The notes under the pieces are model-generated. The model saw only the letters and a program-made list of their open reading frames with translations, had not been told where the DNA came from and searched no databases. A stretch of DNA of 64,000 nt from Candidatus Woesearchaeota archaeon. Its GTDB lineage: Archaea; Nanobdellota; Nanobdellia; Woesearchaeales; GW2011-AR9. Where the stretch lies: assembly GCA_016181265.1 (NCBI GenBank), contig JACOZP010000007.1, forward strand, positions 6,560-70,559, read 5' to 3'. Positions within the stretch are counted from its first letter, which is position 1. Each line of letters opens with the position of its first letter. Below are positions 18,711-47,639 of the stretch, in pieces. The position numbers and the translations under genes were made by a program.

Positions 18711-18713
18711 AAA

Positions 18714-20612: not shown

Positions 20613-20629
20613 AGATCAGAACAGATGCT

Positions 20630-21379: not shown

Positions 21380-21385
21380 AATTAC

Positions 21386-22779: not shown

Positions 22780-22783
22780 AGAG

Positions 22784-23146: not shown

Positions 23147-23148
23147 TA

Positions 23149-24216: not shown

Positions 24217-24233
24217 GAAACCCTTTTTCACAA

Positions 24234-24250
24234 AGCTATTTAAATAAGTT
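24234..24250. promoter_or_regulatory. shared (bidirectional) TATA-like box between divergent genes
   Basis: AGCTATTTAAATAAGTT lies about 30 nt from the ATG at 24272 (+) and about 26 nt from the ATG at 24216 (-). Confidence 0.4.
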
Positions 24251-24271
24251 GCGGAGTAAAAAACACAAACC

Positions 24272-29592: not shown

Positions 29593-29629
29593 GTTTTTTA
29601 GATTCAGGTTAGAACAAGAGAACGAAAGT

Positions 29630-30763: not shown

Positions 30764-31788
30764 GAGACGACCTGTTTGTAAAAACATTTAAAGGGAAAGA
30801 TATCCTCATCACTGGCGGCTGTGGATCAATCGGCAGCGAAATTGTGAAACAACTGATCCAATTCCAACCGCGAAGAATTCGCGTTTTCGATAACAACGAA
30901 TCGGGTCTATTTGAATTACAACAGAAGTTGCAATCCCCTTTAATACGAACGTTAGTAGGAGATATTAGGGATAAAGAGCGATTACGATTTGCAGTTAGGG
31001 GTGTAGACATCGTGTTTCATGCTGCAGCACTAAAGCATGTTCCTCTCTGTGAGTACAACCCATTCGAAGCAGTAAAAACGAACGTCATTGGGACACAAAA
31101 CCTAATAGAAACCTGTCGCGAAAATTTAGTAGAAAAATTCATTGCAATTAGTACAGATAAAGCAGTAAACCCGATTAACACGATGGGTGCGACAAAATTA
31201 TTATCAGAAAAATTAGTGATGACCGCCAATATTGGAATTAATTGTAAAACTAAATTTTCCTGTGTCCGCTTTGGAAACGTCTTAAACTCTATTGGATCAG
31301 TAATTCCTATCTTCAAGCAGCAAATCAAAAGAGGCGGGCCGGTGACAATAACTGATGAGAACATGGTCCGCTTCTTTATGTCTATGTCAGAAGCAGTAAA
31401 TCTAGTACTCGAAGCCGCCACACTCTCTAAAGGAGGAGACATCTTCATCCTCAAAATGAAAAGATTAAAAATCACTGACCTTGCCGATGTTGTTATTAAA
31501 AAGATGGCCCATAAATACGGGCACGACCCGCGGAGTATTAAAATAAAAATCACAGGAATACGCCCAGGAGAAAAGCTAGAAGAACAACTGATTACAGAAG
31601 AAGAGTTTAGTCAGCTGATTAACGTAAAGAAAATGTGGATCATTCGCCCACATCGTATACTCCCCTATGCCCATAAGTACTATGAAAAGATGCCATTAAA
31701 ATTTGGATCAAAGGAGATTAATGAAGAAGTAATTCTTGACAAGAAGGAATTAGAAACACTCTTGGAGAAGTACGATCCTCAGATTTAA
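30760..31788 (+). CDS. UDP-GlcNAc 4,6-dehydratase family (CapD/PseB/FnlA-CapE type)
   Basis: 342 aa with an ATGA overlap. Motifs ILITGGCGSIGSE and STDKAVNPINTMGATK are present; Met replaces the usual Tyr of YxxxK, as I recall for CapE/FnlA. Confidence 0.75.
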   Translation: MRDDLFVKTFKGKDILITGGCGSIGSEIVKQLIQFQPRRIRVFDNNESGLFELQQKLQSPLIRTLVGDIRDKERLRFAVRGVDIVFHAAALKHVPLCEYNPFEAVKTNVIGTQNLIETCRENLVEKFIAISTDKAVNPINTMGATKLLSEKLVMTANIGINCKTKFSCVRFGNVLNSIGSVIPIFKQQIKRGGPVTITDENMVRFFMSMSEAVNLVLEAATLSKGGDIFILKMKRLKITDLADVVIKKMAHKYGHDPRSIKIKITGIRPGEKLEEQLITEEEFSQLINVKKMWIIRPHRILPYAHKYYEKMPLKFGSKEINEEVILDKKELETLLEKYDPQI

Positions 31789-33554: not shown

Positions 33555-35592
33555 CAGAACCTTTATCATGGATGTTTTTAACTTTAATAACAGATGTTCC
33601 AAGATGATACGATTCAATATCTTCCGATGAAGCAAGAAATTTTTCCGTCAAGCGATCTCCTCTTCTTGGAGAAATAATAATTTTCTCTCGATGAGGATAC
33701 AATCTCTCGGCAACATCACCCATTTTAAGTAGATGTCCTGAATTAACAATGTATCGACCTGGTTTCGCCATCATCGTATACAAAATTAATCCTGCCGCTT
33801 CATCGAGGGAGATAAAATGCCGCTGACAGGTGGGCGCAACTCTAATGGGCTCGTTTTCCGGCAAGCTTCTCCATATCTCAAAAACATTGCCGCTACTCTC
33901 CACAACATTGAAATAACGTGCAACACTACCCCCAGAATTAAGCGTCATCCTTTCGGCAATCAGTTTGGAGGCGCCATAGACTATTTCGGGGTTCGCAGAC
34001 TTACAGGTTGACGCGAGAATGATCCGACAATCTTTGGGTGCGCAATCAATTAAATTTTTAGTACCGATGGTATTTATAGATAATGTTTTCCACGTTTCAT
34101 GTTCTCCCTCGGGAGCATGTTTAGCACCTGCAATATTAACAATAATCGTTGGATGATACTTATTCACAACCGCAAAAACATTGTTAAAATCAGTGACATT
34201 CATATACGTATGATTTCCTTCAATATCTGTTGACAAAAAATCAATCTTTGCATCTTGAGACAGTATATTGAACCCCTGTAATCGTTTTAGTAAAGAGGTA
34301 CCAATACTACCATTGGCACCCGTAATCAGAATTCTTTCATTTTTTAATGAGTTGATGTCCAATAACACTAATTCATTATATTCTTTTCGTCCTAACACCA
34401 GTTCCACTTTTTCTTTGTCCATGATTTTAACTCTCCCATTTAGTCTTGATATTTTATTCTGTTCAGAAGCATCATCCCGATAAGAAAAATATGGATTATC
34501 AGGAAGATATTTTTCAAAAAAATCTCTTATCGCCCTAACAACATATTGACGATCGTCTTCTGTTAAATAAGGTCCGATTGGCAACGAGAGTATGGTAGTC
34601 GCAATTCTTTCGGCGACAGGGAAAGATTCCTGTTCATATTCTTTATAAGCGGCTTGTTTGTGAATCGGAATAGGGTAGTAGGCTACACTTTCAATTCTTC
34701 TGTCTGCAAGATATTTCTGAAAATAGTCTCTCTGCTTAACAAGTATGCTATATTGATGGTAAACATGACCGTCATTTTTTGTTGGTAGAGTGATTTCTGA
34801 CAATTCTCGTAGCGAAGAATCATAGAAAAGAGCGTTGTGCACACGTTGCAAATTGAACGCTGTTAGTTTTCGCAGTTGCTCCAGTCCGATAGCCGCGGCA
34901 ACATCAGTCATTCGATAGTTATAACCTATAAAGTCATGGTTATATTTTTTAGAAGAACCATGACTAATCAGTAAGCGTATCCTTGCAGCAATTATATCAT
35001 CATTCGTCGTAACCATCCCACCTTCACTTGTTGTCATATTTTTAGTCGGATAAAATGAGAAACAGCCGATTCCGAAAGAGCCAACTTTTCGTCTTTTATA
35101 CTCCGCCCCATGGGCTTGACAAGCATCTTCCACAACCAAGAGATTATATTTCTTAGCGATGTCCATAATTTTTCCCATCTCTGCCGGAAGCCCAAACAGG
35201 TGTACCGGGAGGATCGCCTTTGTTCGTGGCGTTATAGCACGTTCGATCAACAAGGGATCGATGTTAAATGTCCTCTCGTCAATATCAACGAATACCGGTG
35301 TTGCCCCGCACATCTTTATTGCATTCGCTGTGGCAATAAAAGAAAAAGCGGTTGTAATTACTTCGTCACCATGACCAATACCCAAACCTAATAAAGCGGC
35401 ATGCAGCGCAGTCGTCCCATTTGATGTCGCAATGGCATGCTTAACACCAATAAATTCTGCAAACGCTTCTTCAAACGCTGCCACTATCTTTCCCTGCGCC
35501 AGCATTCCTGAAGATAGAACTTCTATAACTGCCTTTTTTTCCTCTTCACCGATCAATGGCTTTGCTATTGGAATTATTTGGGAAATCATCAT
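33538..35592 (-). CDS. fusion protein: DegT-type sugar aminotransferase + CapD/PglF-like SDR dehydratase domain
   Basis: 684 aa. The N-terminal roughly 380 aa carry SNGTTALH, VEDACQAHGA and FSFYPTKNMTTSEGG. The C-terminal roughly 280 aa carry ILITGANGSIGTS, NIAGAKH and VYGASKLIAE (YxxxK). Confidence 0.75.
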   Translation of the reverse strand: MMISQIIPIAKPLIGEEEKKAVIEVLSSGMLAQGKIVAAFEEAFAEFIGVKHAIATSNGTTALHAALLGLGIGHGDEVITTAFSFIATANAIKMCGATPVFVDIDERTFNIDPLLIERAITPRTKAILPVHLFGLPAEMGKIMDIAKKYNLLVVEDACQAHGAEYKRRKVGSFGIGCFSFYPTKNMTTSEGGMVTTNDDIIAARIRLLISHGSSKKYNHDFIGYNYRMTDVAAAIGLEQLRKLTAFNLQRVHNALFYDSSLRELSEITLPTKNDGHVYHQYSILVKQRDYFQKYLADRRIESVAYYPIPIHKQAAYKEYEQESFPVAERIATTILSLPIGPYLTEDDRQYVVRAIRDFFEKYLPDNPYFSYRDDASEQNKISRLNGRVKIMDKEKVELVLGRKEYNELVLLDINSLKNERILITGANGSIGTSLLKRLQGFNILSQDAKIDFLSTDIEGNHTYMNVTDFNNVFAVVNKYHPTIIVNIAGAKHAPEGEHETWKTLSINTIGTKNLIDCAPKDCRIILASTCKSANPEIVYGASKLIAERMTLNSGGSVARYFNVVESSGNVFEIWRSLPENEPIRVAPTCQRHFISLDEAAGLILYTMMAKPGRYIVNSGHLLKMGDVAERLYPHREKIIISPRRGDRLTEKFLASSEDIESYHLGTSVIKVKNIHDKGSDDDHK

Positions 35593-35713
35593 AGAAATAG
35601 TCTAAAATCAATTTATAAATGTTCAGGAACTAAAGCTTACTCTCATTCAAAAACACCATCCCATTGAAAAACACCCTTTACAAATAAAGAGAATCTGAAT
35701 TTGCCCATTGACA

Positions 35714-37336
35714 TTACCCTACCGCACACTTCTCACAATTATCTCCCGCTCTCTTCCCAGAACTCAATTTATTTCCACATCTACAAACAAATCCTTGTAA
35801 TCGTGCCGGATTTCCATATACTAGGCCAAAGGCCGGAACATTTCTTGTCACCACCGAACCAGCACCAACTAAAGCAAACCGACCGATCGTTACATCAGGT
35901 AACACAACAACACGCGCACCAAGAGAAGCTCCTTCCTTGACCAGGATTTTACCAACAATCCAATCGGTTTCTTTTTTAGGAACACCCCCCAGATTAATCG
36001 CTCGTGGATTTTTATCATTAGTGAGAACAACATGTGGACCTATAAATACCCCATTTTCTAACGTCACACCACGATATAAAGACGAATTATTTTGAATCCG
36101 ACAATGATTCCCGATGACAACACCTCTATCAACATACACATTCTTTCCCAGCATACAGTTGTCCCCGATCACTGCTTCTTCACGAACTTGAGCATGATGC
36201 CAAATAGAAACAACATTGCCGATGATAGCTGCAGGGGATACTTCAGCAGTAGGATGAACTCTTCCTTTTTTAATTTCTCGAACAATCTTCTCACTAGCGC
36301 CTAAATAAAAATCATGTCTCTTTCGTTTGAGATCTTTGATCCCTGAACTCTTAAAGTAAGTGGCGTATGCCGTAACGATCTTTTCAGTAGTTGTCCCTGC
36401 AAGGATGTTTTTTCCATCATAGATCGGCCTCATCCATTCCGTCTCATTCCGCGGAATAAGACATGGTGTGTTCAACGCGACAGCCTCTTCCTGAACTCCA
36501 CCGGAATCAGTGATGCAAAATGTACACGACGAGAGTAACGCTAAAAACTGAAGGTAGGACTGAGGTTCGATCAAAACAACATTCTCATTAAAAACAACTC
36601 CTTTTTCTGTAATCACTTTCTGTGTTCGTGGATGAACAGGAAAGACGAGAATCTCCGACTGCGAAATTACTTTTAGACTTTCTATGATCTGAGTAAAATT
36701 CGGTTCTTCTGTATTTTCAGCACGATGGACCGTAACAAGAACAAAACTCCCTGGTCCCAAACCGAGATTAGCAAGAATTTGAAGATCAACAAAAACTCTA
36801 TTTCGTGCGACTGCATCATACGCCGTGCTCCCAAAATGGTAAATCTTCGAAGAAGGATACTGCTCCCGGGTCAAATTTCCAACAGCAACAGTATCTGGGG
36901 CAATTAAATAGTCTGCAATCCGATCAACTTCAATCCGGTTCATCTCCTCCGGCATAGCTTCATTGAAAGAGCGGCAGCCCGCTTCAATATGCATTAGTCT
37001 CACACCACATTTTCTTGCCGCGCGTGCACCGGCAAGCGTTGAGTTCGTATCGCCAAGTACAAGGACTAAATCTGGTTTCTCTCGATTCAATATTGGCTCG
37101 ATCTTCTCCTCCATCATCTGAAGCTGCTCATCTCGTGAAAGTGAACCAATATCCAGCATAAATGCAGGTTTGGGCAGCTTCAATTCTTCAAAGAATATCT
37201 TATCCATGTTAAAATCATAATGTTGTCCCGTATGAATTATCTTATGTTCAATAGAAAGATCGTTCTCCAACAAATCAATTACCGGCGACAATTTAATGAT
37301 CTCCGGTCTCGTCCCCAATACAGTAATAACTTTCAT
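35714..37336 (-). CDS. fusion protein: UDP-GlcNAc 2-epimerase + hexapeptide (LbH) acetyltransferase + C-terminal zinc ribbon
   Basis: 540 aa. It has an N-terminal VLGTRPEIIKLSPV and DSGGVQEE (Epimerase_2), then about 150 aa of imperfect hexapeptide repeats (IGDNCMLGKNVYVDRGVVIGNHCRIQNN..), then CRCGNKL..CEKC. Confidence 0.75.
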   Translation of the reverse strand: MKVITVLGTRPEIIKLSPVIDLLENDLSIEHKIIHTGQHYDFNMDKIFFEELKLPKPAFMLDIGSLSRDEQLQMMEEKIEPILNREKPDLVLVLGDTNSTLAGARAARKCGVRLMHIEAGCRSFNEAMPEEMNRIEVDRIADYLIAPDTVAVGNLTREQYPSSKIYHFGSTAYDAVARNRVFVDLQILANLGLGPGSFVLVTVHRAENTEEPNFTQIIESLKVISQSEILVFPVHPRTQKVITEKGVVFNENVVLIEPQSYLQFLALLSSCTFCITDSGGVQEEAVALNTPCLIPRNETEWMRPIYDGKNILAGTTTEKIVTAYATYFKSSGIKDLKRKRHDFYLGASEKIVREIKKGRVHPTAEVSPAAIIGNVVSIWHHAQVREEAVIGDNCMLGKNVYVDRGVVIGNHCRIQNNSSLYRGVTLENGVFIGPHVVLTNDKNPRAINLGGVPKKETDWIVGKILVKEGASLGARVVVLPDVTIGRFALVGAGSVVTRNVPAFGLVYGNPARLQGFVCRCGNKLSSGKRAGDNCEKCAVG

Positions 37337-37400
37337 TAAAATGATACTAAAAACAGCCTTTTTATGTTTTATGGGTCAGAGATACTACCCCCTAATTTTC

Positions 37401-38024
37401 TCATCGAAAATTCCTGACCAGTACTCCTAATTCTTGATACGAATCAAAATAAATATCGGCTCCCGGAGCAGTGGAACGATAAAGAAACACTCCCTTCATT
37501 TTCGCTGCGTGTGCTGCCTCAACATCAACAAATGTATCTCCAACATAGATCGCTTCCACAGCGGCTACACCTAATACTTTCAATGCTTTTAACAATGGCT
37601 CAGGATGTGGTTTTGCATACTGAACTTGATCAACTCCCACTACTGTACCAAACAAGCGTTCTACTTCAGAGATCTTCAAATAATCACCAATTCTGTCTCG
37701 CGTCCGGTTAGAAACCAATCCCAAGCCATGATCAACAGACAAATCTTGTACCGCTTCTGAAGAATAAGGGAAGACTTTTAACAATTCACGTGGGTAATCA
37801 ACAGTTCGGGAAAATTCTTCTAATTCCCTACGTTTACTTTCGGGCAAGTCTCTTGCTAAGACATCAATCATGTCGTATCTGCGTAAATGCCAATAGGCAG
37901 CCATCTCTTCTGCAGTAGGGATTTTATATCCAGCTTGGCCAAACACCCGCTGATAAAATGCAATATTTGCTTTTTCTGAATCCAGCAACGTCCCATCAAT
38001 ATCAAATAACACTGCTCTAATCAT
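37401..38024 (-). CDS. HAD-superfamily hydrolase (phosphoglycolate/sugar phosphatase-like)
   Basis: 207 aa. Motifs LFDIDGTLLDS and VGDTFVDVEAA are present. Confidence 0.75.
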   Translation of the reverse strand: MIRAVLFDIDGTLLDSEKANIAFYQRVFGQAGYKIPTAEEMAAYWHLRRYDMIDVLARDLPESKRRELEEFSRTVDYPRELLKVFPYSSEAVQDLSVDHGLGLVSNRTRDRIGDYLKISEVERLFGTVVGVDQVQYAKPHPEPLLKALKVLGVAAVEAIYVGDTFVDVEAAHAAKMKGVFLYRSTAPGADIYFDSYQELGVLVRNFR

Positions 38025-38077
38025 AGATCTCCGTTAAGATCAAGTCTATTTAAATACAATGAAAGAATAACCTCGAC

Positions 38078-38812
38078 CTAGTTTCTCAAAAGATGCAATC
38101 TTCTTGCTACTGATCTCGGTGTTATCTTCAATAGATACCTAGCATGACTCCTCATCACTCGCAATAGACGGATCTTGGAAACACCATATTCTCGCACATG
38201 CAACACCGTTGGATATTCACGAATCGTATGACCCGCTGCATACGCATTCACTAAGATCTCTGCCATCGCTAAGAAATCAGGAGACGTAAACGCCACTGAT
38301 TTAACAACGTCCATTTTATATACACGAAACAATGCAGTGAAAGTAAAAATTTTAATTCCCGTCGTTAAACGATATAACAATGTGATTCCTTTACTCAGCA
38401 GGAGACGATATGCGGGAACGTTCTCCACGCCCCCTCCTGGATGATAAGGTGAAGCAGTCACGATCGAGGTATTTTCATCTAATAAGTCGACCATTGCTAA
38501 CAAACCGCGGGGGTCGTACGTACAATCGCTGTCCATCGTCGCCACAAAGTCACCCGTCGCTGCAGCAAATCCTGTCTGCATCGCCGCCCCAAGATTCTTG
38601 TTTTTCTCATGACGGATAATTTTTGTATTCGGATGTAAACCAAAGTAGCTATTCAACAATTCAAACGTATTATCTCTACTCCCATCGTCAATAAAAATAA
38701 GTTCCACAGCAAACTTCCTCCCTAGTTCTTCCAAAACAGGAGCAATCTTCGTAGATAAATGCGGAATACTTTCCTCCTCATTATAACAGGGGATAATTAT
38801 AGATAATTTCAT
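38078..38812 (-). CDS. GT2 polyprenyl-phosphate sugar synthase-like (ArnC/Dpm1-type catalytic domain)
   Basis: 244 aa. Motifs IIIPCYNEEESI, IDDGSRDNT and MDSDCTYDP are present. There are no C-terminal TM helices. Confidence 0.7.
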   Translation of the reverse strand: MKLSIIIPCYNEEESIPHLSTKIAPVLEELGRKFAVELIFIDDGSRDNTFELLNSYFGLHPNTKIIRHEKNKNLGAAMQTGFAAATGDFVATMDSDCTYDPRGLLAMVDLLDENTSIVTASPYHPGGGVENVPAYRLLLSKGITLLYRLTTGIKIFTFTALFRVYKMDVVKSVAFTSPDFLAMAEILVNAYAAGHTIREYPTVLHVREYGVSKIRLLRVMRSHARYLLKITPRSVARRLHLLRN

Positions 38813-38874
38813 CTACAGCACGCGGCACAAAGTTAATTTATAAATATTTCTTTAATCGAAACAAGGAATTCCCA

Positions 38875-39207
38875 TCAATTGCCAACATTCATCACGACAA
38901 TACCCAACATGATCAATGCCACACCCAAAAGCTTATGTTTATTTAACTGTTCTTTCAACGCAAATTTCGCTAGAACAACTGCCCAAATATAACTCACCGA
39001 CGCAGTCAGATAGATGAACGTCAACGGCGCAAACTTCAGAGCATAAACATAAAAGATAAACGACAAGCCACCTAGCAAGACTGCCAACCCCAGCTTCGTA
39101 TTTTTAAGATCGATTGGCCGGCTGGAACCGATCTTAAAGTAGAGTGTACTAAACGCCCCGATAACTGATGAGATCAGTATCAGAATTATTGCCACACTTT
39201 GATTCAT
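38875..39207 (-). CDS. small 4-TM EamA/DMT-type protein (ArnE/ArnF-size)
   Basis: 110 aa, 4 TM helices, with an ATGA overlap to the upstream partner. Confidence 0.65.
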   Translation of the reverse strand: MNQSVAIILILISSVIGAFSTLYFKIGSSRPIDLKNTKLGLAVLLGGLSFIFYVYALKFAPLTFIYLTASVSYIWAVVLAKFALKEQLNKHKLLGVALIMLGIVVMNVGN

Positions 39208-39629
39208 TGTTCTTCCTCTTTTTCAGGCAGTACTTCTTTCCCCGCTACTGAAACCGTCTGCTGATGACCATATTTTCCGATTAAAATAACACCACCCATA
39301 ATCAGGAACATCCCGCTCCACTTCTGCAGTGTGACGATCTCGTCTAGAAAAAAGACAGAGAGTAATGTGACAACAATATAGCCTGATGCCATCACTGGAT
39401 AAATAACCGATAACTCGCCCAAGCGAAACGCGTAGATAAAAAAGACAGCACCAAAAACATAAAGAGCTCCCCCGACCAGCAGAGGAACATTGGTCAATTG
39501 AGAGAATAATTGATCGGGTGCCAACGAAAAATGATCACTTCCTTTCTTTAATAGAATCTGTGCAACAGAAACGATAGCTGTGCAAAGCAGTGCTAGAAAT
39601 ATCCCCTTTTTATTATCGGTCAACACCAT
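39204..39629 (-). CDS. small 4-TM EamA/DMT-type protein (ArnE/ArnF-size)
   Basis: 141 aa. AFRLGELSVIYPVMASGYIV is homologous to ALRFGDLSFLYPFAALSYVW of 22423-22779. Confidence 0.65.
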   Translation of the reverse strand: MVLTDNKKGIFLALLCTAIVSVAQILLKKGSDHFSLAPDQLFSQLTNVPLLVGGALYVFGAVFFIYAFRLGELSVIYPVMASGYIVVTLLSVFFLDEIVTLQKWSGMFLIMGGVILIGKYGHQQTVSVAGKEVLPEKEEEQ

Positions 39630-39652
39630 TTTTCTCAGTTACTCATTTCGCT

Positions 39653-40681
39653 TTATAAATCTTCTACTGCTTCGGCAAATGATAACAGTTTCCTCTTGCT
39701 GAAAGAAACGCGATTCGGCACAAAGAGAAGCCGCTGCGAAACGGCCGTCCCAGGCCAGGGTGGCAAAAATAAAAATTGTTTTCGCACTGCCTGGTCTCGT
39801 TGTTCTTGATTCTTAAAATAAAAAGCAAGATAAGAACACGCTGATTCCGCGCGAGGATCTACTTCTTGCAAGCGGACATTTTTCTGCTTCAAAAAAAGAT
39901 AATTAGCGCGCTTGCGACGAACATTCCTCACGACACTTTCAACTTGCCAATATGCTAGTTGAGCCTCAACTACAGAACAATGAGCATGGAGAGATAACTC
40001 TTGTGCAAGCCGTAAATCTGCCCGTTTCCGAACAAAGTCGATTAATAATTTAGATAACCAGAAAGCCCGTGTTTCATACAACGATCCGAACAGGCGTTTG
40101 GCGAAGTCAGAAAAAGACGCTTTTCCGTTCTGCATCTGTTGTAATCGCACAATCTCACCAACGTCATGGTTCGTGAACAGTGCTCCTCCACCAATGTTCA
40201 CCATCTGCTTGGTAAAACTATAGACAGCATAATCGCCAAACGTCCCCGCATTCTGTTGATCATAACGTGCACCAAGTGCATGAGCGATATCTTCAATTAA
40301 AATAACATTACGTCGGCGGCAGAGGTCAGCAACTTCTCTAATTCCAGAAGGATTTCCATACGTATGGACAAAGATAACTACTTTCGTTCGAAGAGTGATC
40401 TGCTTCTCCAAAGATTCCGCGTCCAGGTTCAATGTATGAGGATTAACGTCTACTAGTTTAGGAATAGCGCCCCCCTTTGTAATCGCCAATGTCAAACTAT
40501 CACAGATAAAAGATTGGATGATAACTTCATCATCTTTTTGCAGATGAAGGCTACACAACAAAGTGTAAAGGGCATTACGACAAGAGCTAAAGAGAACAAC
40601 ATGACGTAGCTTTAACATCTGAGCTAACTTCCAACAGAGCTTTTCCTGAATCCCTGCCCTATTTGAATTGCCTGATAACAA
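39653..40681 (-). CDS. DegT/DnrJ/EryC1-like PLP aminotransferase-fold protein, paralog B
   Basis: 342 aa from a TTG start that overlaps the upstream gene end. Motifs IEDIAHALGA and YSFTKQMVNIGGG are present. Confidence 0.6.
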   Translation of the reverse strand: MLSGNSNRAGIQEKLCWKLAQMLKLRHVVLFSSCRNALYTLLCSLHLQKDDEVIIQSFICDSLTLAITKGGAIPKLVDVNPHTLNLDAESLEKQITLRTKVVIFVHTYGNPSGIREVADLCRRRNVILIEDIAHALGARYDQQNAGTFGDYAVYSFTKQMVNIGGGALFTNHDVGEIVRLQQMQNGKASFSDFAKRLFGSLYETRAFWLSKLLIDFVRKRADLRLAQELSLHAHCSVVEAQLAYWQVESVVRNVRRKRANYLFLKQKNVRLQEVDPRAESACSYLAFYFKNQEQRDQAVRKQFLFLPPWPGTAVSQRLLFVPNRVSFSKRKLLSFAEAVEDL

Positions 40682-41711
40682 TCGGACTTATCACCTCAAT
40701 CATTTTTTTAGGTAGCAAGCGCCATACTTTCCCGTAGAGACGATACAAGCCAAAGGAAGCATCTAAAGAAGGGATGTCCTTTGAATCGGCAGCATAAAAA
40801 TAATAAGGAATCTCTCTCTGACGCGTCGCCCATTTCTCTTTGAATGCATACATATTCCCATCGTTCATCTCTCTCGTAGACCCACCTAAATCTACAATTG
40901 CATATTTTTGTGTAATGCCATAGCAGATAATCTCCCAAAGTAGAATATAATAGGGACTTATCTTATTATAACAATAATCTGTCCCTGCAAAAGCATACTC
41001 GATCGTCTCTCGATCAAAAAATAAGAAAGCCGCAGCAATTGGTTTTTCCCCGAGATAAGTCACCGCGATAGTAGTCGTACAAGTACGAAGTGCTTCCTCA
41101 AACAACGTATATGGCCATGCCGGAACACCTCGTCTCTTTCGCGTATTCAGATAGACGTTATAAAAATCATCAAGTCGCTTTTTTTCCGTACCAATAACAA
41201 CTATTAAGCCATTCTTCTGTGCTTTGCGGATGTCGTAACGAACATCTTTCGAAAAAGAAGCCAGCATCTCTTCTTCAGAAGATCTCAGGTCAATCAAAAA
41301 GTCAGTAATCGGAGATTGTTTCACAAAGTGAGACACTAAATCTTCTTTCAATGGTTTCTGTTGCCGAATCTCTAAAAATTTTCCGTCCTGTGCTAATTCC
41401 TTTGCTTTCTCCAAAAGCATCTTTGTTACTTCATCATCATCGCTTACCACGCCGCCAAATGGAAAAAAAGGAATAGACACATAACGTACCCCTTCTACTA
41501 AGCTACTCGTCTTAAAGAGAGGCAAAACACCACGAATAGAACCATCAACCCAGGCAACAAGATAGGAAGGGGAAAAGCGAAAGTGATGCACAATTAAATC
41601 CATAATTTCCAAACCATGGAGATACAACGCATCAGGATGGTTCTTAACAAATGACTGATAGGTTTCATACTCGTCTTTGTTCAGTAATCGTACTTCTCTC
41701 TGGGATTTCAT
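40659..41711 (-). CDS. FemAB-like / Acetyltransf_6 (GNAT-fold) transferase, paralog B1
   Basis: 350 aa. It has the same length and block order as 41727-42779 (..LPLFKT..L.., DVRYDIRKA, YNVYLNTRKRRGVP, FAGTD, YAFKEKWA). Confidence 0.6.
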   Translation of the reverse strand: MKSQREVRLLNKDEYETYQSFVKNHPDALYLHGLEIMDLIVHHFRFSPSYLVAWVDGSIRGVLPLFKTSSLVEGVRYVSIPFFPFGGVVSDDDEVTKMLLEKAKELAQDGKFLEIRQQKPLKEDLVSHFVKQSPITDFLIDLRSSEEEMLASFSKDVRYDIRKAQKNGLIVVIGTEKKRLDDFYNVYLNTRKRRGVPAWPYTLFEEALRTCTTTIAVTYLGEKPIAAAFLFFDRETIEYAFAGTDYCYNKISPYYILLWEIICYGITQKYAIVDLGGSTREMNDGNMYAFKEKWATRQREIPYYFYAADSKDIPSLDASFGLYRLYGKVWRLLPKKMIEVISPIVIRQFK

Positions 41712-41726
41712 GTTTTTATTACACTC

Positions 41727-42779
41727 CTAGACAAACTGGCGGATGAGATATGGGCTTAATTTATCAATAACGAATAACGGAAGCTTTTTCCATATCTTAC
41801 TCGCAACCAGAAATAAAACACCATCAGTCTGTGGAAGCGGCAAACCAGTGGGAGAATAAAAGTAAGAGGGGACCGTTGTGATAGTATCTGCCCATTTCCG
41901 TTTGAATTCATAGAGACCACCATCATTCGCGGACAATGTCGCCCCCCCAAAATTAAAGAGTGTATATCCTCTCTCACACCCATCTTTAATTGCTTCCCAG
42001 AGTAAAAGATGATAAGGTTGCAACTTTAAGATCGACTTCTGTTGAAGCGAGCCGCTGAAAGCATATCTAATTTCCTTCTTATGATACAACAAAAAAATAG
42101 AGGCGATTGGTTTTTCTTCGTAAAACGCGGTATAGATACGTGCCGTATCTCCGAAGCATCCCAGAATCTGCTTAAAATAAGAATAAGGGTAACCGGGAAC
42201 ACCACGAAACTTGCGCGTGATCAAGAAAAGACGATAGAATCCATCCAAGTCTCTGACAGAATTTCCCCATCTCCAAGTTATCCCGCTCTTCTCTGCAGTC
42301 TTTATACCCCAGCGGACACTGCTTTTTGGTAATTTCAATAAGACCCGTTGCGCATCAGCATTAAGCATGAGAGAAAAGTTAAATACTGCTTGTGAACGGC
42401 GGAAATGTGAGACGTAATTCTCATTCTGTTCTGGCTCTCGTACTTCGAGAAAAGAAATATTCTCTTTGTTTGCTAATTCCCGTGCAAAAGAGAGCATACC
42501 TCGTTCCGCCACAGGGTTATCCCCCAGTATCCCCGTTGAAACGGCATATGGAGTTGAAACAAGACGAGCGCCAAAGAGGCTCTGTGTTTTAAATAGAGTC
42601 AAAACTCCATCTATTTTTCCCACTTCGTTCTTATGGACGATAATCATCGGGACAAATTTAAAATGTCGAGCAAGAATTTCTGCCCATCGCCGCGTGTGTT
42701 CAAACGTTGAGGAAGGATGCGTTTCAACATAACAATCATATTCTGTCCAATCATCCTGCGAAAGGAAAGTAGTGATCAT
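41727..42779 (-). CDS. FemAB-like / Acetyltransf_6 (GNAT-fold) transferase, paralog B2
   Basis: 350 aa. Blocks LTLFKTQSLFG, SVRWGIKTA, LFLITRKFRGVPGYP, FSGS and YEFKRKWA are present. It is tandem with paralog B1. Confidence 0.6.
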   Translation of the reverse strand: MITTFLSQDDWTEYDCYVETHPSSTFEHTRRWAEILARHFKFVPMIIVHKNEVGKIDGVLTLFKTQSLFGARLVSTPYAVSTGILGDNPVAERGMLSFARELANKENISFLEVREPEQNENYVSHFRRSQAVFNFSLMLNADAQRVLLKLPKSSVRWGIKTAEKSGITWRWGNSVRDLDGFYRLFLITRKFRGVPGYPYSYFKQILGCFGDTARIYTAFYEEKPIASIFLLYHKKEIRYAFSGSLQQKSILKLQPYHLLLWEAIKDGCERGYTLFNFGGATLSANDGGLYEFKRKWADTITTVPSYFYSPTGLPLPQTDGVLFLVASKIWKKLPLFVIDKLSPYLIRQFV

Positions 42780-42780
42780 C

Positions 42781-43674
42781 TCAATTCCTCAACCTCAACG
42801 CGAATTCAGCAGATGTGACAAAAGTATGATGCTTTGTCAGCTCTTGTAACATCCTTCGAAAGAGCTGAAGTCTTTTTTCCAATGGTATTCCTATCAAATG
42901 GCCTAATCGAGGATCATGGATCTCATCTGCTAGATCAGCGGCATGAAATTCATAATTAAGAGGTATTTTTAACAAACGTACGAGGGAGTGAGCAATCTTA
43001 AAATAAAAAAACCCCAACTTTACTATAAAAGTAGCATGGATCGGAATCCTCAACAGTGGCATCACCGTACAAGGAATTTCTAACAGTTTCCCTCTTCTAT
43101 TCGAAGCTACAACATAAGGCTTATTTTTCTTTAAGAACCAGTGCCAGCGCGGGCCGTGTGTCCGTAAGACCCCTCCTTTAAACCAAGTGTTCAAACGCAT
43201 AATGATTGGATACACAAACGTCGAGATATAAGAGCTATCATAACGATAGCCACTCCCATGAAGAATCTGCAATACCTCCGTATCAATATCATATCCCGGA
43301 GCTTTAAACCCAACTGGTTTTCTCCCTGTTATCATCAAAAGAGCCTTCTCTCCTTCGAGAATTTCTTTTTTCTTCTGCTCCAAAGAACATTTTCGTAACC
43401 CAAAAGGATGTGAGTAAGTATGATTCGCTAATTCATGTTCTTCATCATAAATTCGTTTCAACAACTCTCTTTTGAGGGGATCAGCCGTATCCCTACCAAT
43501 GACAAAAAACGTCGCTTTAATTCCAAACTCTCGAAATAATTCGAGATAGCGTGGTACGGCTGTCTCAAACAGTATATCAGGAGAGATTGATACATCATGT
43601 CCATAATAGCTGAGATTAGTCCATAACCCATCTAAATCAACTTGAATCGTTGCTAAAGTTCGTTTCAAAACCAT
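42781..43674 (-). CDS. polysaccharide deacetylase (CE4; ArnD/PEP-CTERM-locus-like)
   Basis: 297 aa. Motifs QVDLDG, KATFFVIG and ANHTYSH are present. Its stop is 1 nt from the next start. Confidence 0.7.
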   Translation of the reverse strand: MVLKRTLATIQVDLDGLWTNLSYYGHDVSISPDILFETAVPRYLELFREFGIKATFFVIGRDTADPLKRELLKRIYDEEHELANHTYSHPFGLRKCSLEQKKKEILEGEKALLMITGRKPVGFKAPGYDIDTEVLQILHGSGYRYDSSYISTFVYPIIMRLNTWFKGGVLRTHGPRWHWFLKKNKPYVVASNRRGKLLEIPCTVMPLLRIPIHATFIVKLGFFYFKIAHSLVRLLKIPLNYEFHAADLADEIHDPRLGHLIGIPLEKRLQLFRRMLQELTKHHTFVTSAEFALRLRN

Positions 43675-43699
43675 CGGCTAGTATGATTCATTCTTCCCT

Positions 43700-43714
43700 A
43701 ACCTTTATAAAATT
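43700..43714 (+). promoter_or_regulatory. TATA-like box for Alg14/Alg13-like operon
   Basis: AACCTTTATAAAATT lies about 27 nt upstream of the ATG at 43735. Confidence 0.45.
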
Positions 43715-43734
43715 TGTCGAACCACGACACCCAG

Positions 43735-44223
43735 ATGACCAAGAAAAAAATGCTTGTGGTTTTGGGAATGGGAGGCCATACCGCCCAGATTCTCCGCTTG
43801 CTCGATTCTTTAGGTGACACGTATGAATACGAATATGTCATTGGCCACGATGATACTACTTCCGCCGCCAAGATAAAACTAAAAGGAAAAATCCACGTCA
43901 TGCGCAATCCACGTCTGATGACAGACAAATCAATAGCAAAGGTGGCGCTCAATATGGTGCCTTCCACTATTGACGCTTTTTCAATCCTACGCAAAACTAA
44001 ACCAGATGCCATTCTCAGCGCTGGACCGGCCTTGACCATCCCTCTCTTCTGGTTGGCAAAAGCAAGAGGAACAAAAACAATCTTCGTTGAATCATGGGTC
44101 CGCGTCCACCATCAGTCATTAACAGGGAGATTAGTATACCCAGTCAGCGATCTCTTCTTTGTCCAATGGGAAAGTATGACCAAAACATATCCTAAAGCAA
44201 TATACGCTGGAAGACTATCATGA
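43735..44223 (+). CDS. Alg14-like oligosaccharide biosynthesis protein (membrane-anchoring subunit of GlcNAc transferase)
   Basis: The ATG at 43735 lies about 27 nt downstream of a TATA box (CCTTTATAAAAT). Motifs VVLGMGGHTAQIL and FVESWVRV are present. Confidence 0.7.
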   Translation: MTKKKMLVVLGMGGHTAQILRLLDSLGDTYEYEYVIGHDDTTSAAKIKLKGKIHVMRNPRLMTDKSIAKVALNMVPSTIDAFSILRKTKPDAILSAGPALTIPLFWLAKARGTKTIFVESWVRVHHQSLTGRLVYPVSDLFFVQWESMTKTYPKAIYAGRLS

Positions 44224-44753
44224 AACAGCAAGAACATAAGATGAAAGAGAAAAAAGAACAGCTAGGCACAGAAAAAAAGATACTGTTCGTCACCGTTGGA
44301 AATGGTAAGTTTGATCCTTTGGTCCAAGAGTTGGACCGTCTTAAAAAAGAAGGGAAAATCAATCACGATATTATCATCCAAGTAGGACATGGAGAATACA
44401 AGCCTTCACACTGCCAATGGTTTACGTTTGACCAACATCTTGGAAAATATTACGAGAAAGCAGATCTGATCATCGGCCACGGCGGACCGGGAACTGTTTT
44501 TGAAATCCTACGTCTAAAGAAACCATTGATCGCTTTACCTAATCGTGACCGCACCGACCCACAGCATCAGGTTGAATATCTTGAAGCGATGGCAAAAGAA
44601 ACAACCTCATTATTATACTGTGATCATGTAGAGAAGATCAACGAGTTTTTAAAACAAGCAGAGACCCATCAATTTACGTCATATCAACCACCCCCTTGTT
44701 TCATTCATCTAAAAGTACATGAAGCATTGCAGCCGCATGATCAATCGCCTTAG
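44220..44753 (+). CDS. Alg13-like glycosyltransferase family 28 C-terminal domain protein (catalytic subunit)
   Basis: ATGA overlap with the Alg14-like gene. Motifs LFVTVGNGKFD and ADLIIGHGGPGTVFE are present. Confidence 0.7.
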   Translation: MKQQEHKMKEKKEQLGTEKKILFVTVGNGKFDPLVQELDRLKKEGKINHDIIIQVGHGEYKPSHCQWFTFDQHLGKYYEKADLIIGHGGPGTVFEILRLKKPLIALPNRDRTDPQHQVEYLEAMAKETTSLLYCDHVEKINEFLKQAETHQFTSYQPPPCFIHLKVHEALQPHDQSP

Positions 44754-46008
44754 GACCTATCTAAAACGAGGAGAAACCGCTCCTCATCTTCTCAAGACTT
44801 TTTTTATGTACGGTCTGATCGCGTTGAGCATCATCGGCACAAAAGTGTTGATCGCCCGACTTTATGGCCAGGAAGAGCTGGGACAATTTTCTTATTTCTT
44901 CAGTCTCGTCACCGTCGCGTTTCTCTTCACTTCTTTTGGCCTGCCAGAAGCAATTACCCAGCTCGTCGTCAAGAACCATCAACTGCTTCGCCCGATCGTC
45001 AAAAAAGCGTTGAAATGGATTCTCTCGATCTCACTAGTCGTGAGTATCCCGTTGATATCGACCTCTTTCTTTCTAGATACTTCTTTGAGTAAAGTTAATT
45101 TTGTGGTATATATTTCTACCTATACTCTTTTTTACGTCATGTATTGTATCTTTCGCGCCTATAAGAAATTCGTAGAAGGAACATGGTACTCACTCGTCAA
45201 TCGCTTTATTTTCATTGCCACCGTCATTATTGGTGCATATTTGTCCCTGCCTTTTGAATACGTTCTCACCGGTTTATCCCTTGCCCTCTTCACCGCAAGC
45301 ATCGTTTCGCTTCCATCATTGATAAAGCTGTGGAAAGAAGTAGAGATAAGATCAGAAGAAGATAAAACCGTCGAAAAAGAGAAAGAAAATATCACCTCAA
45401 AAGAACTTCTCTCCGTCGCTCTTTCTCTTGCCCTCATGCAAGCTGGCTTTTATCTCCTAAGGGAAACAGATATTCTCATCATCTCTTACCTATCTAATTT
45501 CACAGAATTAGGATTATATTCTGCTCATTCCTCCCTCAGCAACATCATCCGCCTCATTGCCTATGTCTTCCCTGTTGTCATCCTGCCCATGGCCGTTGCA
45601 AGTAGGTACAAGATTAGCGCATCATTTTGGAAAATCATGAAGATTCTCGTACCTTTCTCACTCCTTGTTCTAGCCACAACATACCTCTTTGTGCCTTTGC
45701 TCTACGGCAAAGAATATACGGATTATGTCCTACCGATTGCTCTTGTTGTCTCTTCAGCACTCATGGTCATCTATTCCTACTTCAATTCTGTACTTGTCGG
45801 AGAGAATAAAGTCTCTTCAAACTACCTTACATTGATCACTATCGACTTTTTCATCACACTTGTGGTGAATACCGGATTGACCATTCTCTTCATCAAATGG
45901 TGGGGCATTATCGGCGCACCGATCGCCACCACAATTACACTCTTATTAAAAATAGGATTAAATCTGTATGGGATTAAGAAGTTAAGACAGGAAAATTTAA
46001 ATAGATAA
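44719..46008 (+). CDS. Wzx-like oligosaccharide flippase (MOP superfamily polysaccharide biosynthesis protein)
   Basis: 429 aa with about 12 TM helices and a composition typical of Wzx/RfbX. The start could instead be the ATG at 44737. Confidence 0.65.
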   Translation: MKHCSRMINRLRTYLKRGETAPHLLKTFFMYGLIALSIIGTKVLIARLYGQEELGQFSYFFSLVTVAFLFTSFGLPEAITQLVVKNHQLLRPIVKKALKWILSISLVVSIPLISTSFFLDTSLSKVNFVVYISTYTLFYVMYCIFRAYKKFVEGTWYSLVNRFIFIATVIIGAYLSLPFEYVLTGLSLALFTASIVSLPSLIKLWKEVEIRSEEDKTVEKEKENITSKELLSVALSLALMQAGFYLLRETDILIISYLSNFTELGLYSAHSSLSNIIRLIAYVFPVVILPMAVASRYKISASFWKIMKILVPFSLLVLATTYLFVPLLYGKEYTDYVLPIALVVSSALMVIYSYFNSVLVGENKVSSNYLTLITIDFFITLVVNTGLTILFIKWWGIIGAPIATTITLLLKIGLNLYGIKKLRQENLNR

Positions 46009-46680: not shown

Positions 46681-47388
46681 CTATTTTATGTCAATCCAAC
46701 TCAAAGTGTTAAAAGAAGTAGGATGCTTAGCGCAGATCCTTTCTGATCCATATTTTCCCTTGTATTTATCACCTATTTGGGCGGATAAACCATCTGGACC
46801 AATTTTATTCCCACATGTTACCCAGCTTTCGTATGTTTTTCCACCAATTACTTTATTTTGACAGCTAGCAGTGGTAAGTGAGCCTCCAAGTCCTCCATCA
46901 TTAACGTTTGAAAGATATATAACGTCATCATTATAATTCATTTCCTTCACAAAGTCGCTATCACATTCTTTGAAACTACCGATCGTAATCTCTTTTCCTG
47001 CTTTGTCTATTTTATTCCAGTCACAAAAAACATCAAAGTTATTATCAACGTTTAAGACCCCATAAACCGGAATATCAACCGTGCAAGTAAAACGTTTCCC
47101 TTTCGCACAAATACTATCTAAAGCTTTGTTATCTTTAGGTTCCATATAACTTCCCCTAAATACCCATCCACTACATTTTGGATCAGCACAATCTATGACC
47201 CCATCTTTATTATCATCTAATTTATTGTCACAGATTTCACCAAGTATTTGGTTTGCCCCTCCCATTGTTGGCGCTGTTACTCCTTTTGGAAGTCTTTTGG
47301 CGTTTCCTGCTAACGTTTCACCAGGCACGCAAGCCACAACAAACAACGTAATGACTACTAATCCTAAAATTACAAACATCTTCTTCAT
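46681..47388 (-). CDS. secreted Cys-rich protein with Ca-binding-like DxDxDG motif
   Basis: The ATG at 47388 (the track start is TTG) gives the signal/anchor MKKMFVILGLVVITLFVVACVPG. There are 14 or more Cys residues, plus DNKLDDNKDGVIDCADPKC. Confidence 0.55.
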   Translation of the reverse strand: MKKMFVILGLVVITLFVVACVPGETLAGNAKRLPKGVTAPTMGGANQILGEICDNKLDDNKDGVIDCADPKCSGWVFRGSYMEPKDNKALDSICAKGKRFTCTVDIPVYGVLNVDNNFDVFCDWNKIDKAGKEITIGSFKECDSDFVKEMNYNDDVIYLSNVNDGGLGGSLTTASCQNKVIGGKTYESWVTCGNKIGPDGLSAQIGDKYKGKYGSERICAKHPTSFNTLSWIDIK

Positions 47389-47639
47389 TACATTCACCCT
47401 TATTAATTTTAATGAACCTCCCAATCGCAGCAGAGCTGCGGGGTATTAGACCCAGAAGGGAATAAAATAAGTAATCTGTTTCAATTTTTAAATCTTTCTG
47501 TCCCCCACTCCCCCAGTGACTAAAGAAAAAGAGAGGAAGAATGGAAACAGAGTGATTACGATTTTATCATTGTTTCTCCAAAGTTTAGAAATGTTCATTG
47601 GCTTCAAAGAATTACAAAAATAATATCTTTTTAACAACC

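Follow-up and report, generated by a model that had tools for sequence, protein, structure and literature searches.

What use could an archaeon that has no peptidoglycan make of two tandem genes for enzymes of the kind that build peptidoglycan bridges? The question is raised by a stretch of 64,000 nucleotides from a Candidatus Woesearchaeota archaeon (assembly GCA_016181265.1, contig JACOZP010000007.1, positions 6,560 to 70,559), here called the window, whose own numbering is used throughout. A cassette on its minus strand encodes, in order of reading, a CE4 deacetylase, two FemAB-like transferases (Fem1 and Fem2), a truncated DegT-like protein designated sDegT, two small EamA-like membrane proteins of the mini-DMT type (subunits a and b) and a glycosyltransferase of family GT2. 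On balance it is probable that these genes, together with others that follow them, make and export an N-aminoacylated diamino sugar, with the chemistry of the bacterial Wbp/Vim pathway operating on a carrier route of the type known from Arn and from AglD-R-S.

A cassette at the front of a longer operon

The seven open reading frames (ORFs) are co-directional and lie on the minus strand exactly where the original prediction, made from the sequence, had placed them, and the protein families then proposed for all seven are borne out by Pfam, every match being above the gathering score (Table 1). For NCBIfam models the yardstick was the curated equivalog cutoff, and transmembrane segments were sought by a hydropathy scan. 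The packing is close. There is 1 nt between CE4 and Fem1, 15 nt between Fem1 and Fem2, an overlap of 23 nt between Fem2 and sDegT, a gap of 23 nt from sDegT to mini-DMT subunit a, an ATGA overlap of subunits a and b that can be read straight from the sequence, and 62 nt before GT2. The start codon of sDegT is TTG, a correction to the earlier ORF description. What did not stand is the idea of a seven-gene unit ending at 38078, as the minus-strand string has 11 genes and runs over about 12 kb (31785-43674). The best explanation is that the seven genes form the leading portion of an operon of 11 genes in a DPANN-type archaeon.

Are the Fem-like proteins tRNA-dependent?

The two 350-aa products had been described as tandem FemAB-like/Acetyltransf_6 paralogs, and both families are found in both proteins: FemAB at 66.9 bits (2e-18) in Fem1 and 59.8 bits (2.7e-16) in Fem2, against a gathering score of 24, and Acetyltransf_6 at 49 bits (9e-13) and 66 bits (5e-18), respectively. 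Their alignment to the TIGR03019 model is full length (2-328 of 330). Against the FemX equivalog NF047883 the pair scores 47.5 and 41 bits, where the cutoff is 500. Fem1 and Fem2 are 35% identical and belong to separate orthologous clades: the orthologs of Fem2 are 46-60% identical to it but only 30-38% to Fem1, and where a related locus has a single Fem it is of the Fem1 type.

The AlphaFold2 (AF2) model of Fem1 has a pLDDT of 94.5, and in a Foldseek comparison with the PDB it matches FemX of W. viridescens at a TM-score of 0.67-0.72 (E 3e-19). The best 25 fold matches are all aminoacyl-tRNA-dependent transferases, with FemX, S. aureus FemX/FemA, Sbb17/Sba18 bound to streptothrisamine, which is an amino sugar, and aminoacyl-phosphatidylglycerol synthases at the top; tandem GNATs that use acetyl-CoA rank below them. 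A profile of the Fem family also finds W. viridescens FemX in the PDB, at 1e-16. The proteins thus score and fold as Fem/GNAT-type enzymes, and on their modelled fold they are FemX-type tandem-GNAT transferases. At the catalytic site, F292-K293 is unchanged in 30 of 30 sequences, Fem2 included, and the alignment pairs it with F304-K305 of FemX. That enzyme is considered to have Lys305 as its only catalytic residue, and the DhpH-C equivalents, Phe328/Lys329, are essential (PMC12945691). When GNAT acetyl-CoA motif A ([QR]xxGx[GA]) was looked for in the Fem proteins it was not found. It is because of the fold ranking, the invariant F292-K293 and the missing motif A that Fem1 and Fem2 are taken as candidate tRNA-dependent enzymes, and Fem1 is predicted from its model to be an aminoacyl-tRNA-dependent N-aminoacyl transferase like VimA.

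How far does the likeness to the FemXAB/MurMN enzymes go? It extends to the tandem-GNAT fold (TM-score about 0.7 to FemX), to the catalytic Lys that follows an aromatic residue and to a conserved basic helix. It does not extend to acceptor recognition, as FemX K36 and R211, which bind UDP-MurNAc-pentapeptide, are replaced in the profile alignment by Leu and Tyr/Trp. Unlike FemA, Fem1 and Fem2 have no coiled-coil insert, and unlike the hosts of Fem and MurMN the present one has no peptidoglycan. In place of a peptidoglycan precursor, a diamino sugar linked to a nucleotide or a lipid is the presumed acceptor. There is precedent for such a role in the Orf11-type enzymes of streptothricin-type pathways, which aminoacylate the amine of an amino sugar.

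An exhaustive search with the Fem profile gave 3295 cluster representatives at E <= 1e-30, with about ten archaeal ones on top followed by a plateau of true TIGR03019 members, some of which (among them P0232 and P0250) are fused to CE4 domains, that of P0250 matching the VimE deacetylase model. The contig of P0250 is too short to give a gene neighbourhood. It is this plateau, with its CE4 fusions and the VimE-like one among them, that leads to the comparison with Wbp/Vim.

The deacetylase and its bacterial counterparts

The CE4 protein has Polysacc_deac_1 at 76 bits (2.3e-21) with the motifs D-x-D, HTYSH and KAPGY all present, and its gene adjoins or overlaps that of Fem1 in all the related loci. 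The original prediction made it an equivalent of ArnD. It is closer to H. pylori PgdA, its best PDB match (3qbu, 7e-15), and to TIGR03006 than to ArnD; against the ArnD equivalog NF011923 it scores 18.8 bits where the cutoff is 382, no ArnD is among its PDB sequence matches, and a specific kinship to ArnD was looked for and not found. Nor was there a match at E <= 0.01 to the VimE equivalog NF053580. By analogy its role is predicted to be like that of VimE or ArnD.

Pairs of a FemAB-like protein and a CE4 protein had been thought uncharacterised, a view that is outdated now that VimE plus VimA have been described in the Wbp/Vim pathway (PMC7468200). WbpA/B/E/D of Porphyromonas gingivalis and Tannerella forsythia synthesise 2,3-di-N-acetyl-glucuronic acid. 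In the linking-sugar pathway of these species the CE4 protein VimE is the proposed remover of the 2-N-acetyl group, VimA, which matches TIGR03019, adds Ser or Gly (a swap of vimA switches the residue), the AsnB-like WbpS amidates the linking sugar's uronic acid, and C-termini of cargo proteins are then amide-linked to that sugar by T9SS, the secretion system of type IX (PMC7468200). Homologs of vimA, vimE and asnB were observed by Veith et al. 2020 beside exosortase and rhombosortase genes (PMC7468200).

By analogy, the CE4 and FemAB-like pair is the archaeal counterpart of VimE/VimA. The two systems share a CE4 protein beside a TIGR03019-type transferase that attaches, or here would attach, an amino acid to a diamino sugar's unmasked amine. 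Sugar genes that in part resemble those of Wbp accompany the pair, namely DegT, hexapeptide acetyltransferase and WecB-type epimerase in the window operon and a GFO_IDH_MocA oxidoreductase in most related loci; a WbpS/TIGR03108-like amidotransferase and a TviB/WbpA-like dehydrogenase are found elsewhere in the window. They differ in that Wbp/Vim is bacterial (Bacteroidota) and the present host archaeal, in that Wbp/Vim has one Fem-like transferase and the window two tandem paralogs, and in that the Wbp/Vim sugar is added by the cytoplasmic VimF whereas the route in the window would run through GT2, acting on polyprenyl phosphate, the two mini-DMT proteins and a glycosyltransferase of the GT-C kind. 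The sugar itself may be another one. As the window has a PseB-like SDR domain instead of a WbpB-like gene, a 2,4-diamino sugar is possible.

The genes for exopolysaccharide (EPS) that accompany XrtA and PEP-CTERM proteins also bear comparison. Proteins of the window align full length to TIGR03019, TIGR03006 and TIGR03108, and outside the Archaea their nearest relatives are genuine members of these families. However, the window proteins score below all three curated cutoffs, and loci of the window type are of the archaeal N-glycosylation type, with Alg13/14, AglB and GT-Cs.

A truncated DegT-fold protein tied to a transporter

That sDegT would be a DegT-fold protein was right as regards fold and family. 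It is not an ordinary ArnB, of which it had been proposed to be the equivalent, and it represents a truncated subfamily. The DegT_DnrJ_EryC1 match (138 bits) covers residues 18-174 only, and the 90.4 bits against the ArnB equivalog NF008658 (cutoff 631) come from the N-terminal half alone. Its AF2 model (pLDDT 91.3) is matched by Foldseek to WbpE, perosamine synthase and WecE at TM-scores of 0.72-0.77, with ArnB ranking 44th or lower. The clade is a tight one of 334-368 aa, with a sharp drop in score to ordinary DegTs; the pyridoxal phosphate (PLP) Lys158 and Asp131 are invariant in it, the N-terminal 27 alignment columns of canonical DegTs are missing, the C-terminal domain is shortened, and there are clade-specific inserts at residues 174-189 and 208-221. 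An amphipathic membrane helix in these inserts was considered but is not claimed, the hydrophobic moments being unremarkable.

In at least two lineages sDegT is fused to the first mini-DMT (EamA) protein (P0053 in L018; P0070/P0077 in L008), the single ORFs being L008:3384-4796 (470 aa) and L018:8001-9545 (514 aa), and the protein database holds a third fusion cluster (P0070, 475 aa). Through the fusion the enzyme is bound physically to the membrane transporter. Our best guess at its reaction is a transamination on a membrane-bound sugar, just before flipping or coupled to it, and the fusion suggests that the sugar is edited directly at the flippase.

A proposed carrier route and the Arn analogy

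GT2 has Glycos_transf_2 at 114 bits (1e-32) and no transmembrane segments of its own. Its best NCBIfam match is ArnC (NF007986, 82.9 bits, cutoff 529), its best PDB matches, all of them polyprenyl-phosphate glycosyltransferases, are the dolichyl-phosphate mannose synthase (DPMS) of P. furiosus (5mlz, 2.7e-25), three structures of ArnC (about 1e-20) and GtrB, and it also matches PpgS and the models for haloarchaeal dolichyl-phosphate hexose transferases; from these matches it is predicted to be a polyprenyl (dolichyl)-phosphate sugar synthase. The two small membrane proteins are indeed DMT-like, with EamA above its gathering score of 28.2 in both (31.8 bits in subunit a, 39.9 in subunit b), and ArnE is the best, though weak, NCBIfam match for each (33.5 and 34.2 bits, cutoff 92). 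Each had been credited with four transmembrane segments, which holds for the 110-aa protein; the 141-aa protein has three clear ones and a fourth just under the threshold. By analogy the pair is the candidate flippase of the lipid-linked product. The GT-C that closes the gene string has PMT_2 at 4e-10, PMT at 7.7e-9 and about 11 hydrophobic segments, its true start is probably downstream of the TTG, and it is a candidate for an enzyme that, like ArnT or AglS, uses a lipid-phosphate sugar outside the cell. Searches of PDB sequences with both GT-C types gave no match at E <= 1. GT-C genes had been noted elsewhere in the window, which needs amending in that one of them belongs to the same string; in the relatives another adjoins CE4 on its upstream side.

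Archaeal loci without a mini-DMT pair have, beside a GT-C, an MprF-type flippase-like gene (LPG_synthase_TM). The latter is next to Fem-family genes at L014:6278-7255, L013:128-1099 and L019:1936-2883, which include a bacterial TIGR03019 locus besides the archaeal ones. It may be a non-orthologous replacement of the mini-DMT flippase. Its position beside a Fem-family gene looks like a "split MprF".

The distal genes between GT2 and the GT-C would supply the sugar. The epimerase fusion has Epimerase_2 at 3.6e-91 plus Hexapep, with 299.9 bits to TIGR00236 (above the cutoff of 210) and 90.9 bits to TIGR03570, and both of its halves are kept downstream of GT2 in related loci. The DegT/SDR fusion has DegT at 1.4e-130 and Polysacc_synt_2 at 4.5e-29, with 316.7 bits to PseC and 64.6 bits to PseB; the full-length DegT is kept in the relatives, and the identical fusion occurs in L011. 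The HAD phosphatase has no counterpart at this position in the maps of related loci.

How Arn-like, then, is the whole? The analogy drawn in the original prediction stands at the level of families and not at that of equivalogs. Shared with Arn, in families and predicted logic, are an aminotransferase, a GT2 acting on polyprenyl phosphate, unmasking of an amine by CE4 and a GT-C; the mini-DMT pair would be the counterpart of the heterodimeric flippase, which has four transmembrane segments per subunit. Arn has ArnA; the window has no ArnA-type step and its operon no Formyl_trans_N gene, a formyltransferase being found only in the variant locus L004. The operon's CE4 shows no special likeness to ArnD, its DegT-like protein is shortened and in some relatives fused to the transporter, and the acceptor of Arn is lipid A, which archaea do not have. 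That the Fem pair lacks an Arn counterpart, as had been said, was confirmed by the comparison. As is generally known, in the AglD/AglR/AglS route of H. volcanii and the PpgS/Rv3632/Rv3779 galactosamine (GalN) route of M. tuberculosis, a GT2 makes a polyprenyl-phosphate sugar which is flipped, and a GT-C on the outer face uses it to decorate an existing glycan. The logic of GT2, flipping and GT-C would be the same here. To our knowledge neither route includes aminoacylation or a CE4/Fem pair, and their flippase candidates are of other families.

Conservation and its exceptions

Conservation was mapped by placing the proteins of the window onto related loci that had been fetched. At least 11 distinct archaeal loci, most of them bearing the label Woesearchaeota or Nanoarchaeota, repeat the gene order of the cassette at protein identities of 40-65%, so the arrangement is not due to chance, and the co-conservation of the neighbourhood across archaeal bins that the original prediction called for was found. 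The closest homologs of Fem1 and sDegT are 45-65% identical, the named ones coming from metagenome-assembled genomes (MAGs) of Woesearchaeota, Nanoarchaeota or Nanoarchaeia. The order CE4-Fem1-Fem2-sDegT-EamA-EamB-GT2-epimerase-(SDR)-hexapeptide-DegT is present in L001/L006, L002, L003/L016, L008, L009, L010, L011 and L015, and the GT-C of the window matches the downstream GT-C of L002, L009, L011 and L015. L018 has the order up to EamB, then a GT-C at the end of the contig.

Other loci depart further. L004/L012 have CE4-Fem1-GT2 with the formyltransferase. In L013 and L014 there is a single Fem, the mini-DMT pair is missing, and a sister of sDegT that is full-length lies on the other strand. 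Strict co-variation of Fem2, sDegT and the mini-DMT pair as an accessory module was entertained and dropped, as Fem2 occurs in L020 with neither sDegT nor EamA; downstream in that locus are genes for a HAD protein, a GNAT protein and a nonulosonic acid synthase of the NeuB type. In L007, from a Woesearchaeota MAG, an 8-kb phosphonate cassette (L007:11108-18847) is inserted between Fem1 and Fem2, and the fetched DNA stops within sDegT. The insert encodes a phosphoenolpyruvate mutase/cytidylyltransferase fusion, a thiamine pyrophosphate decarboxylase-like protein, an iron-dependent alcohol dehydrogenase (Fe-ADH), a CDP-alcohol phosphatidyltransferase, a radical SAM/SPASM protein and a helix-turn-helix protein, which hints at phosphonate decoration of the same glycan.

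A proposed pathway and its rivals

How might the parts act together? The distal DegT/PseB-like and WecB-type/hexapeptide fusions would turn UDP-GlcNAc into the nucleotide of a di-N-acylated diamino-hexose, which GT2, being of the DPMS/ArnC/GtrB type, would load on dolichyl or polyprenyl phosphate. CE4 would then take off one N-acyl group, Fem1 would aminoacylate the freed amine from aminoacyl-tRNA, and Fem2 would extend the product or aminoacylate a second amine, so that the sugar would come to carry an aminoacyl or a dipeptidyl group. With sDegT docked on them, the mini-DMT proteins would flip the lipid-linked product, and the GT-C would hand its sugar on to a glycan or protein of the surface. 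Which genes are present, their families and folds, the conservation of catalytic residues, the synteny and the fusions of genes are matters of observation; we infer all the substrates, the aminoacyl-tRNA donor, the order of loading, deacetylation and aminoacylation, the roles of the flippase and of sDegT, and the final acceptor. Lipid loading followed by deacetylation, aminoacylation and flipping is one of two viable orders.

A number of points weigh against the scheme. Curated cutoffs are repeatedly missed, with Fem1 and Fem2 at 162.9 and 172.9 bits to TIGR03019 (cutoff 260.35), CE4 at 56.1 bits to TIGR03006, its best NCBIfam match (cutoff 276.2), and all Arn equivalog scores below theirs. 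The hydropathy scan found no transmembrane segment or evident membrane anchor in CE4, Fem1 or Fem2. In the model for Wbp/Vim, as in the name that NCBI gives to VimE, it is the UDP-sugar that is edited, and editing may therefore precede lipid loading. No demonstration of the amino-acid donor of VimA was found in the literature searched. A WbpB-like GFO_IDH_MocA gene, present in 9 related loci, is absent from the window, as is the GT-C that lies directly upstream of CE4 in all full-order and partial loci. L004, L013 and L014 have one Fem and no mini-DMT, and L020 (4041-13809) has GT-C-CE4-Fem-Fem-GT-C with no GT2, sDegT or EamA nearby; the gene set is a modular one, without a strict requirement for its parts to be together in cis.

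The chemistry could be as proposed and its order that of Wbp/Vim, CE4 and the Fems editing a soluble UDP-sugar in the cytoplasm before any lipid loading. GT2 would then load the finished aminoacyl-sugar on lipid phosphate, with the mini-DMT pair and the GT-C acting as already described, or else a cytoplasmic glycosyltransferase would add the finished sugar to a lipid-linked oligosaccharide. NCBIfam names VimE a UDP-2,3-diacetamido-2,3-dideoxy-glucuronate deacetylase, in P. gingivalis the finished sugar is added by a cytoplasmic enzyme, W. viridescens FemX, the best structural match, has a UDP-linked acceptor, the lack of transmembrane segments in CE4 and the Fems fits, and bacterial CE4-Fem pairs occur without GT2 or mini-DMT. 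Set against this, sDegT, whose gene lies between that of Fem2 and those of the transporter, occurs as a fusion with a membrane protein, Fem-family genes associate with MprF-type flippase-like genes, and the substrates of S. aureus FemX and of ArnD are lipid-linked. None of the three is decisive, and this order is a serious possibility, if one that we would not expect to prove right.

The exceptions to the gene order raise the issue of whether two separate pathways share the operon, with an Arn-like branch (sDegT, GT2, the mini-DMT pair and the GT-C) exporting a plain cationic amino sugar, and CE4, Fem1 and Fem2 modifying a different sugar, one of the Alg13/14-Wzx-AglB N-glycan precursor. The lone GT-C/CE4/Fem/Fem set of L020, the retention of CE4/Fem1/GT2 without the mini-DMT pair in L004, L013 and L014, and Alg14, Alg13, Wzx and AglB as conserved neighbours would all accord with that. 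It is made quite unlikely by the overlap or translational coupling of Fem2, sDegT and EamA in several loci, by an order from CE4 to GT2 that is held across 40-65% protein identity, by the GT2 that stays with Fem1 in the very loci where the middle genes are missing (L004, L013, L014) and by the recurrence of the same four families together in a second module of the window (module A, below). Highly improbable is a further reading, in which the Fems are N-acyltransferases that use acyl-CoA or another acyl donor and swap N-acyl groups after CE4 has acted. Acetyltransf_6 is a generic GNAT family, VimA was formerly annotated as an acetyl-CoA transferase, and the literature searched holds no TIGR03019-type protein with a demonstrated donor. 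However, the CoA-dependent enzymes come below the best 25 fold matches, the Phe-Lys catalytic motif of FemX is invariant, the acetyl-CoA motif is absent, and a vimA swap that changes Ser to Gly means that the family installs amino acids.

What is new and what would follow

Each component family, and each half of the pathway logic, is known already. What is new is the combination of two bacterial schemes, Wbp/Vim and Arn, with tandem Fems and a recurrent fusion of truncated DegT to mini-DMT. The literature searched contains no account of such a cassette in DPANN archaea or of tandem Fem paralogs, no Vim-like pair coupled to a polyprenyl-phosphate/mini-DMT/GT-C route and no truncated DegT-mini-DMT fusion; literature searches on FemAB with Woesearchaeota, FemX with DPANN, ArnD/ArnE with archaea or dolichol, and VimA with aminoacyl-tRNA found nothing relevant. 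If the proposal is correct, aminoacyl-tRNA-dependent decoration of sugars, a chemistry so far known from bacterial peptidoglycan bridges, a few antibiotics and (genetically) the T9SS linking sugar, reaches the Archaea, and does so in DPANN lineages, which depend on hosts and are little understood. Genes labelled in databases "peptidoglycan bridge formation glycyltransferase FemA/FemB" in organisms free of peptidoglycan are given a testable function, and the proposal joins the puzzling PEP-CTERM FemAB/deacetylase/amidotransferase trio, the Wbp/Vim pathway and the Arn pathway as one modular toolkit.

What might an aminoacyl or dipeptidyl sugar be for? By analogy it could be a surface amine handle for sortase-like attachment of proteins or for cross-linking of glycans, though we consider this rather unlikely. 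Once the sugar had been exported on dolichyl phosphate and transferred by the GT-C, a sortase-like transpeptidase would use its free alpha-amine, so that surface proteins would become amide-linked to the glycan or glycolipid, or glycans would be cross-linked. Two enzymes provide precedents: PorU, which uses the seryl/glycyl linking sugar, and sortase A, which uses the pentaglycine built by Fem enzymes. Among the window ORFs scanned there is no sortase-like enzyme (sortase, PorU, exosortase or archaeosortase) and no PEP-CTERM protein. Were the idea true, it would be the first case in Archaea of a peptidoglycan-like anchoring chemistry that depends on Fem and tRNA, and sDegT with mini-DMT would be a new complex of PLP enzyme and flippase that edits a lipid-linked sugar during export. 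Such a handle could bear on protein attachment in DPANN archaea or on their attachment to hosts.

Neighbouring genes and a second module

Table 1. Features of the operon, its divergent neighbours and module A (window coordinates)
Feature	Position	Strand	Basis
CE4 (NodB-fold) N-deacylase, 297 aa	42781-43674	-	Pfam Polysacc_deac_1
Fem1, FemX-type tandem-GNAT transferase (modelled fold), 350 aa	41727-42779	-	FemAB, Acetyltransf_6
Fem2, Fem1 paralog, 350 aa	40659-41711	-	Acetyltransf_6, FemAB
sDegT, truncated DegT-fold PLP enzyme, 342 aa	39653-40681	-	DegT_DnrJ_EryC1
Mini-DMT subunit a (EamA-like), 141 aa, candidate flippase subunit	39204-39629	-	EamA
Mini-DMT subunit b (EamA-like), 110 aa	38875-39207	-	EamA
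GT2, predicted polyprenyl (dolichyl)-phosphate sugar synthase, 244 aa	38078-38812	-	Glycos_transf_2
HAD-family phosphatase, 207 aa	37401-38024	-	HAD_2 4e-35
WecB-type non-hydrolysing UDP-HexNAc 2-epimerase fused to hexapeptide (NeuD/PglB/VioB-type) sugar N-acetyltransferase	35714-37336	-	Epimerase_2, Hexapep
Full-length DegT sugar aminotransferase (PseC/LegC-like) fused to PseB-like SDR domain	33538-35592	-	DegT, Polysacc_synt_2
GT-C glycosyltransferase, candidate ArnT/AglS-like	31785-33635	-	PMT_2/PMT
Divergent spacer, 39 bp, CE4 to Alg14	43675-43713	.	Sequence reading
Alg14-like, Alg13-like (GT28_C) and Wzx-type Polysacc_synt flippase, divergent neighbours	43714-46008	+	Pfam
WbpS/TIGR03108-like AsnB-type amidotransferase beside module A	18714-20612		Full-length TIGR03108 alignment, 508.8 bits, below cutoff
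Module A CE4	20630-21379	+	Pfam; TIGR03006 66 bits
Module A Fem-like, 419 aa, N-terminal hydrophobic segment	21386-22645	-	TIGR03019 178.7 bits
Module A mini-EamA, 120 aa	22784-23146	-	Pfam
Module A DegT-like, 374 aa	23149-24273	-	Pfam, same partial match as sDegT

Within the short spacer between CE4 and Alg14 the element TTTATAAAA sits about 30 nt upstream of the CE4 ATG, and to judge by its letters and position it is probably the archaeal TATA box of a leaderless operon transcript; the TTG start of Alg14 may be mis-set. A scan for bacterial promoters and terminators gave nothing above shuffles, the method being ill-suited to archaea, and tRNA and Rfam scans of the window had no matches. The divergent Alg14-like/Alg13-like/Wzx trio, which belongs to lipid-linked oligosaccharide assembly, adjoins the cassette also in L001, L003, L007, L010, L018 and L020, and beyond the Wzx-like gene of the window come genes for AglB/STT3, a B12-radical SAM protein and a methyltransferase. 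Placed between these glycan genes and the B12-radical SAM gene is one for a Cys-rich protein of 247 aa (46681-47424, minus strand) that has an N-terminal hydrophobic segment and, as its sole family match, an acidic double-disulfide repeat; its product could be secreted or a surface protein.

Module A is a diverged counterpart of the cassette. In blastp its Fem is 24-26% identical to those of the cassette, its EamA 34% and its DegT 32%. The glycan module of which it is part (16672-24273) also holds an AglH/WecA-like Glycos_transf_4 gene and a GT2. Convergent to the GT-C of the operon, plus-strand genes at 28726-31788 encode an enzyme of the BKACE family, another full-length DegT that is PseC/LegC-like and a PseB-like 4,6-dehydratase, which suggests a further amino-sugar branch beside the operon studied. 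Farther off, a 726-aa fusion (60141-62321, minus strand) joins a GalE/TviC-like epimerase to a TviB-like UDP-GlcNAc C6-dehydrogenase and is a possible source of the uronic-acid form of the sugar, by a WbpA-like step; a second UDP-glucose dehydrogenase-like ORF, at 63002-63961, reaches beyond the end of the window.

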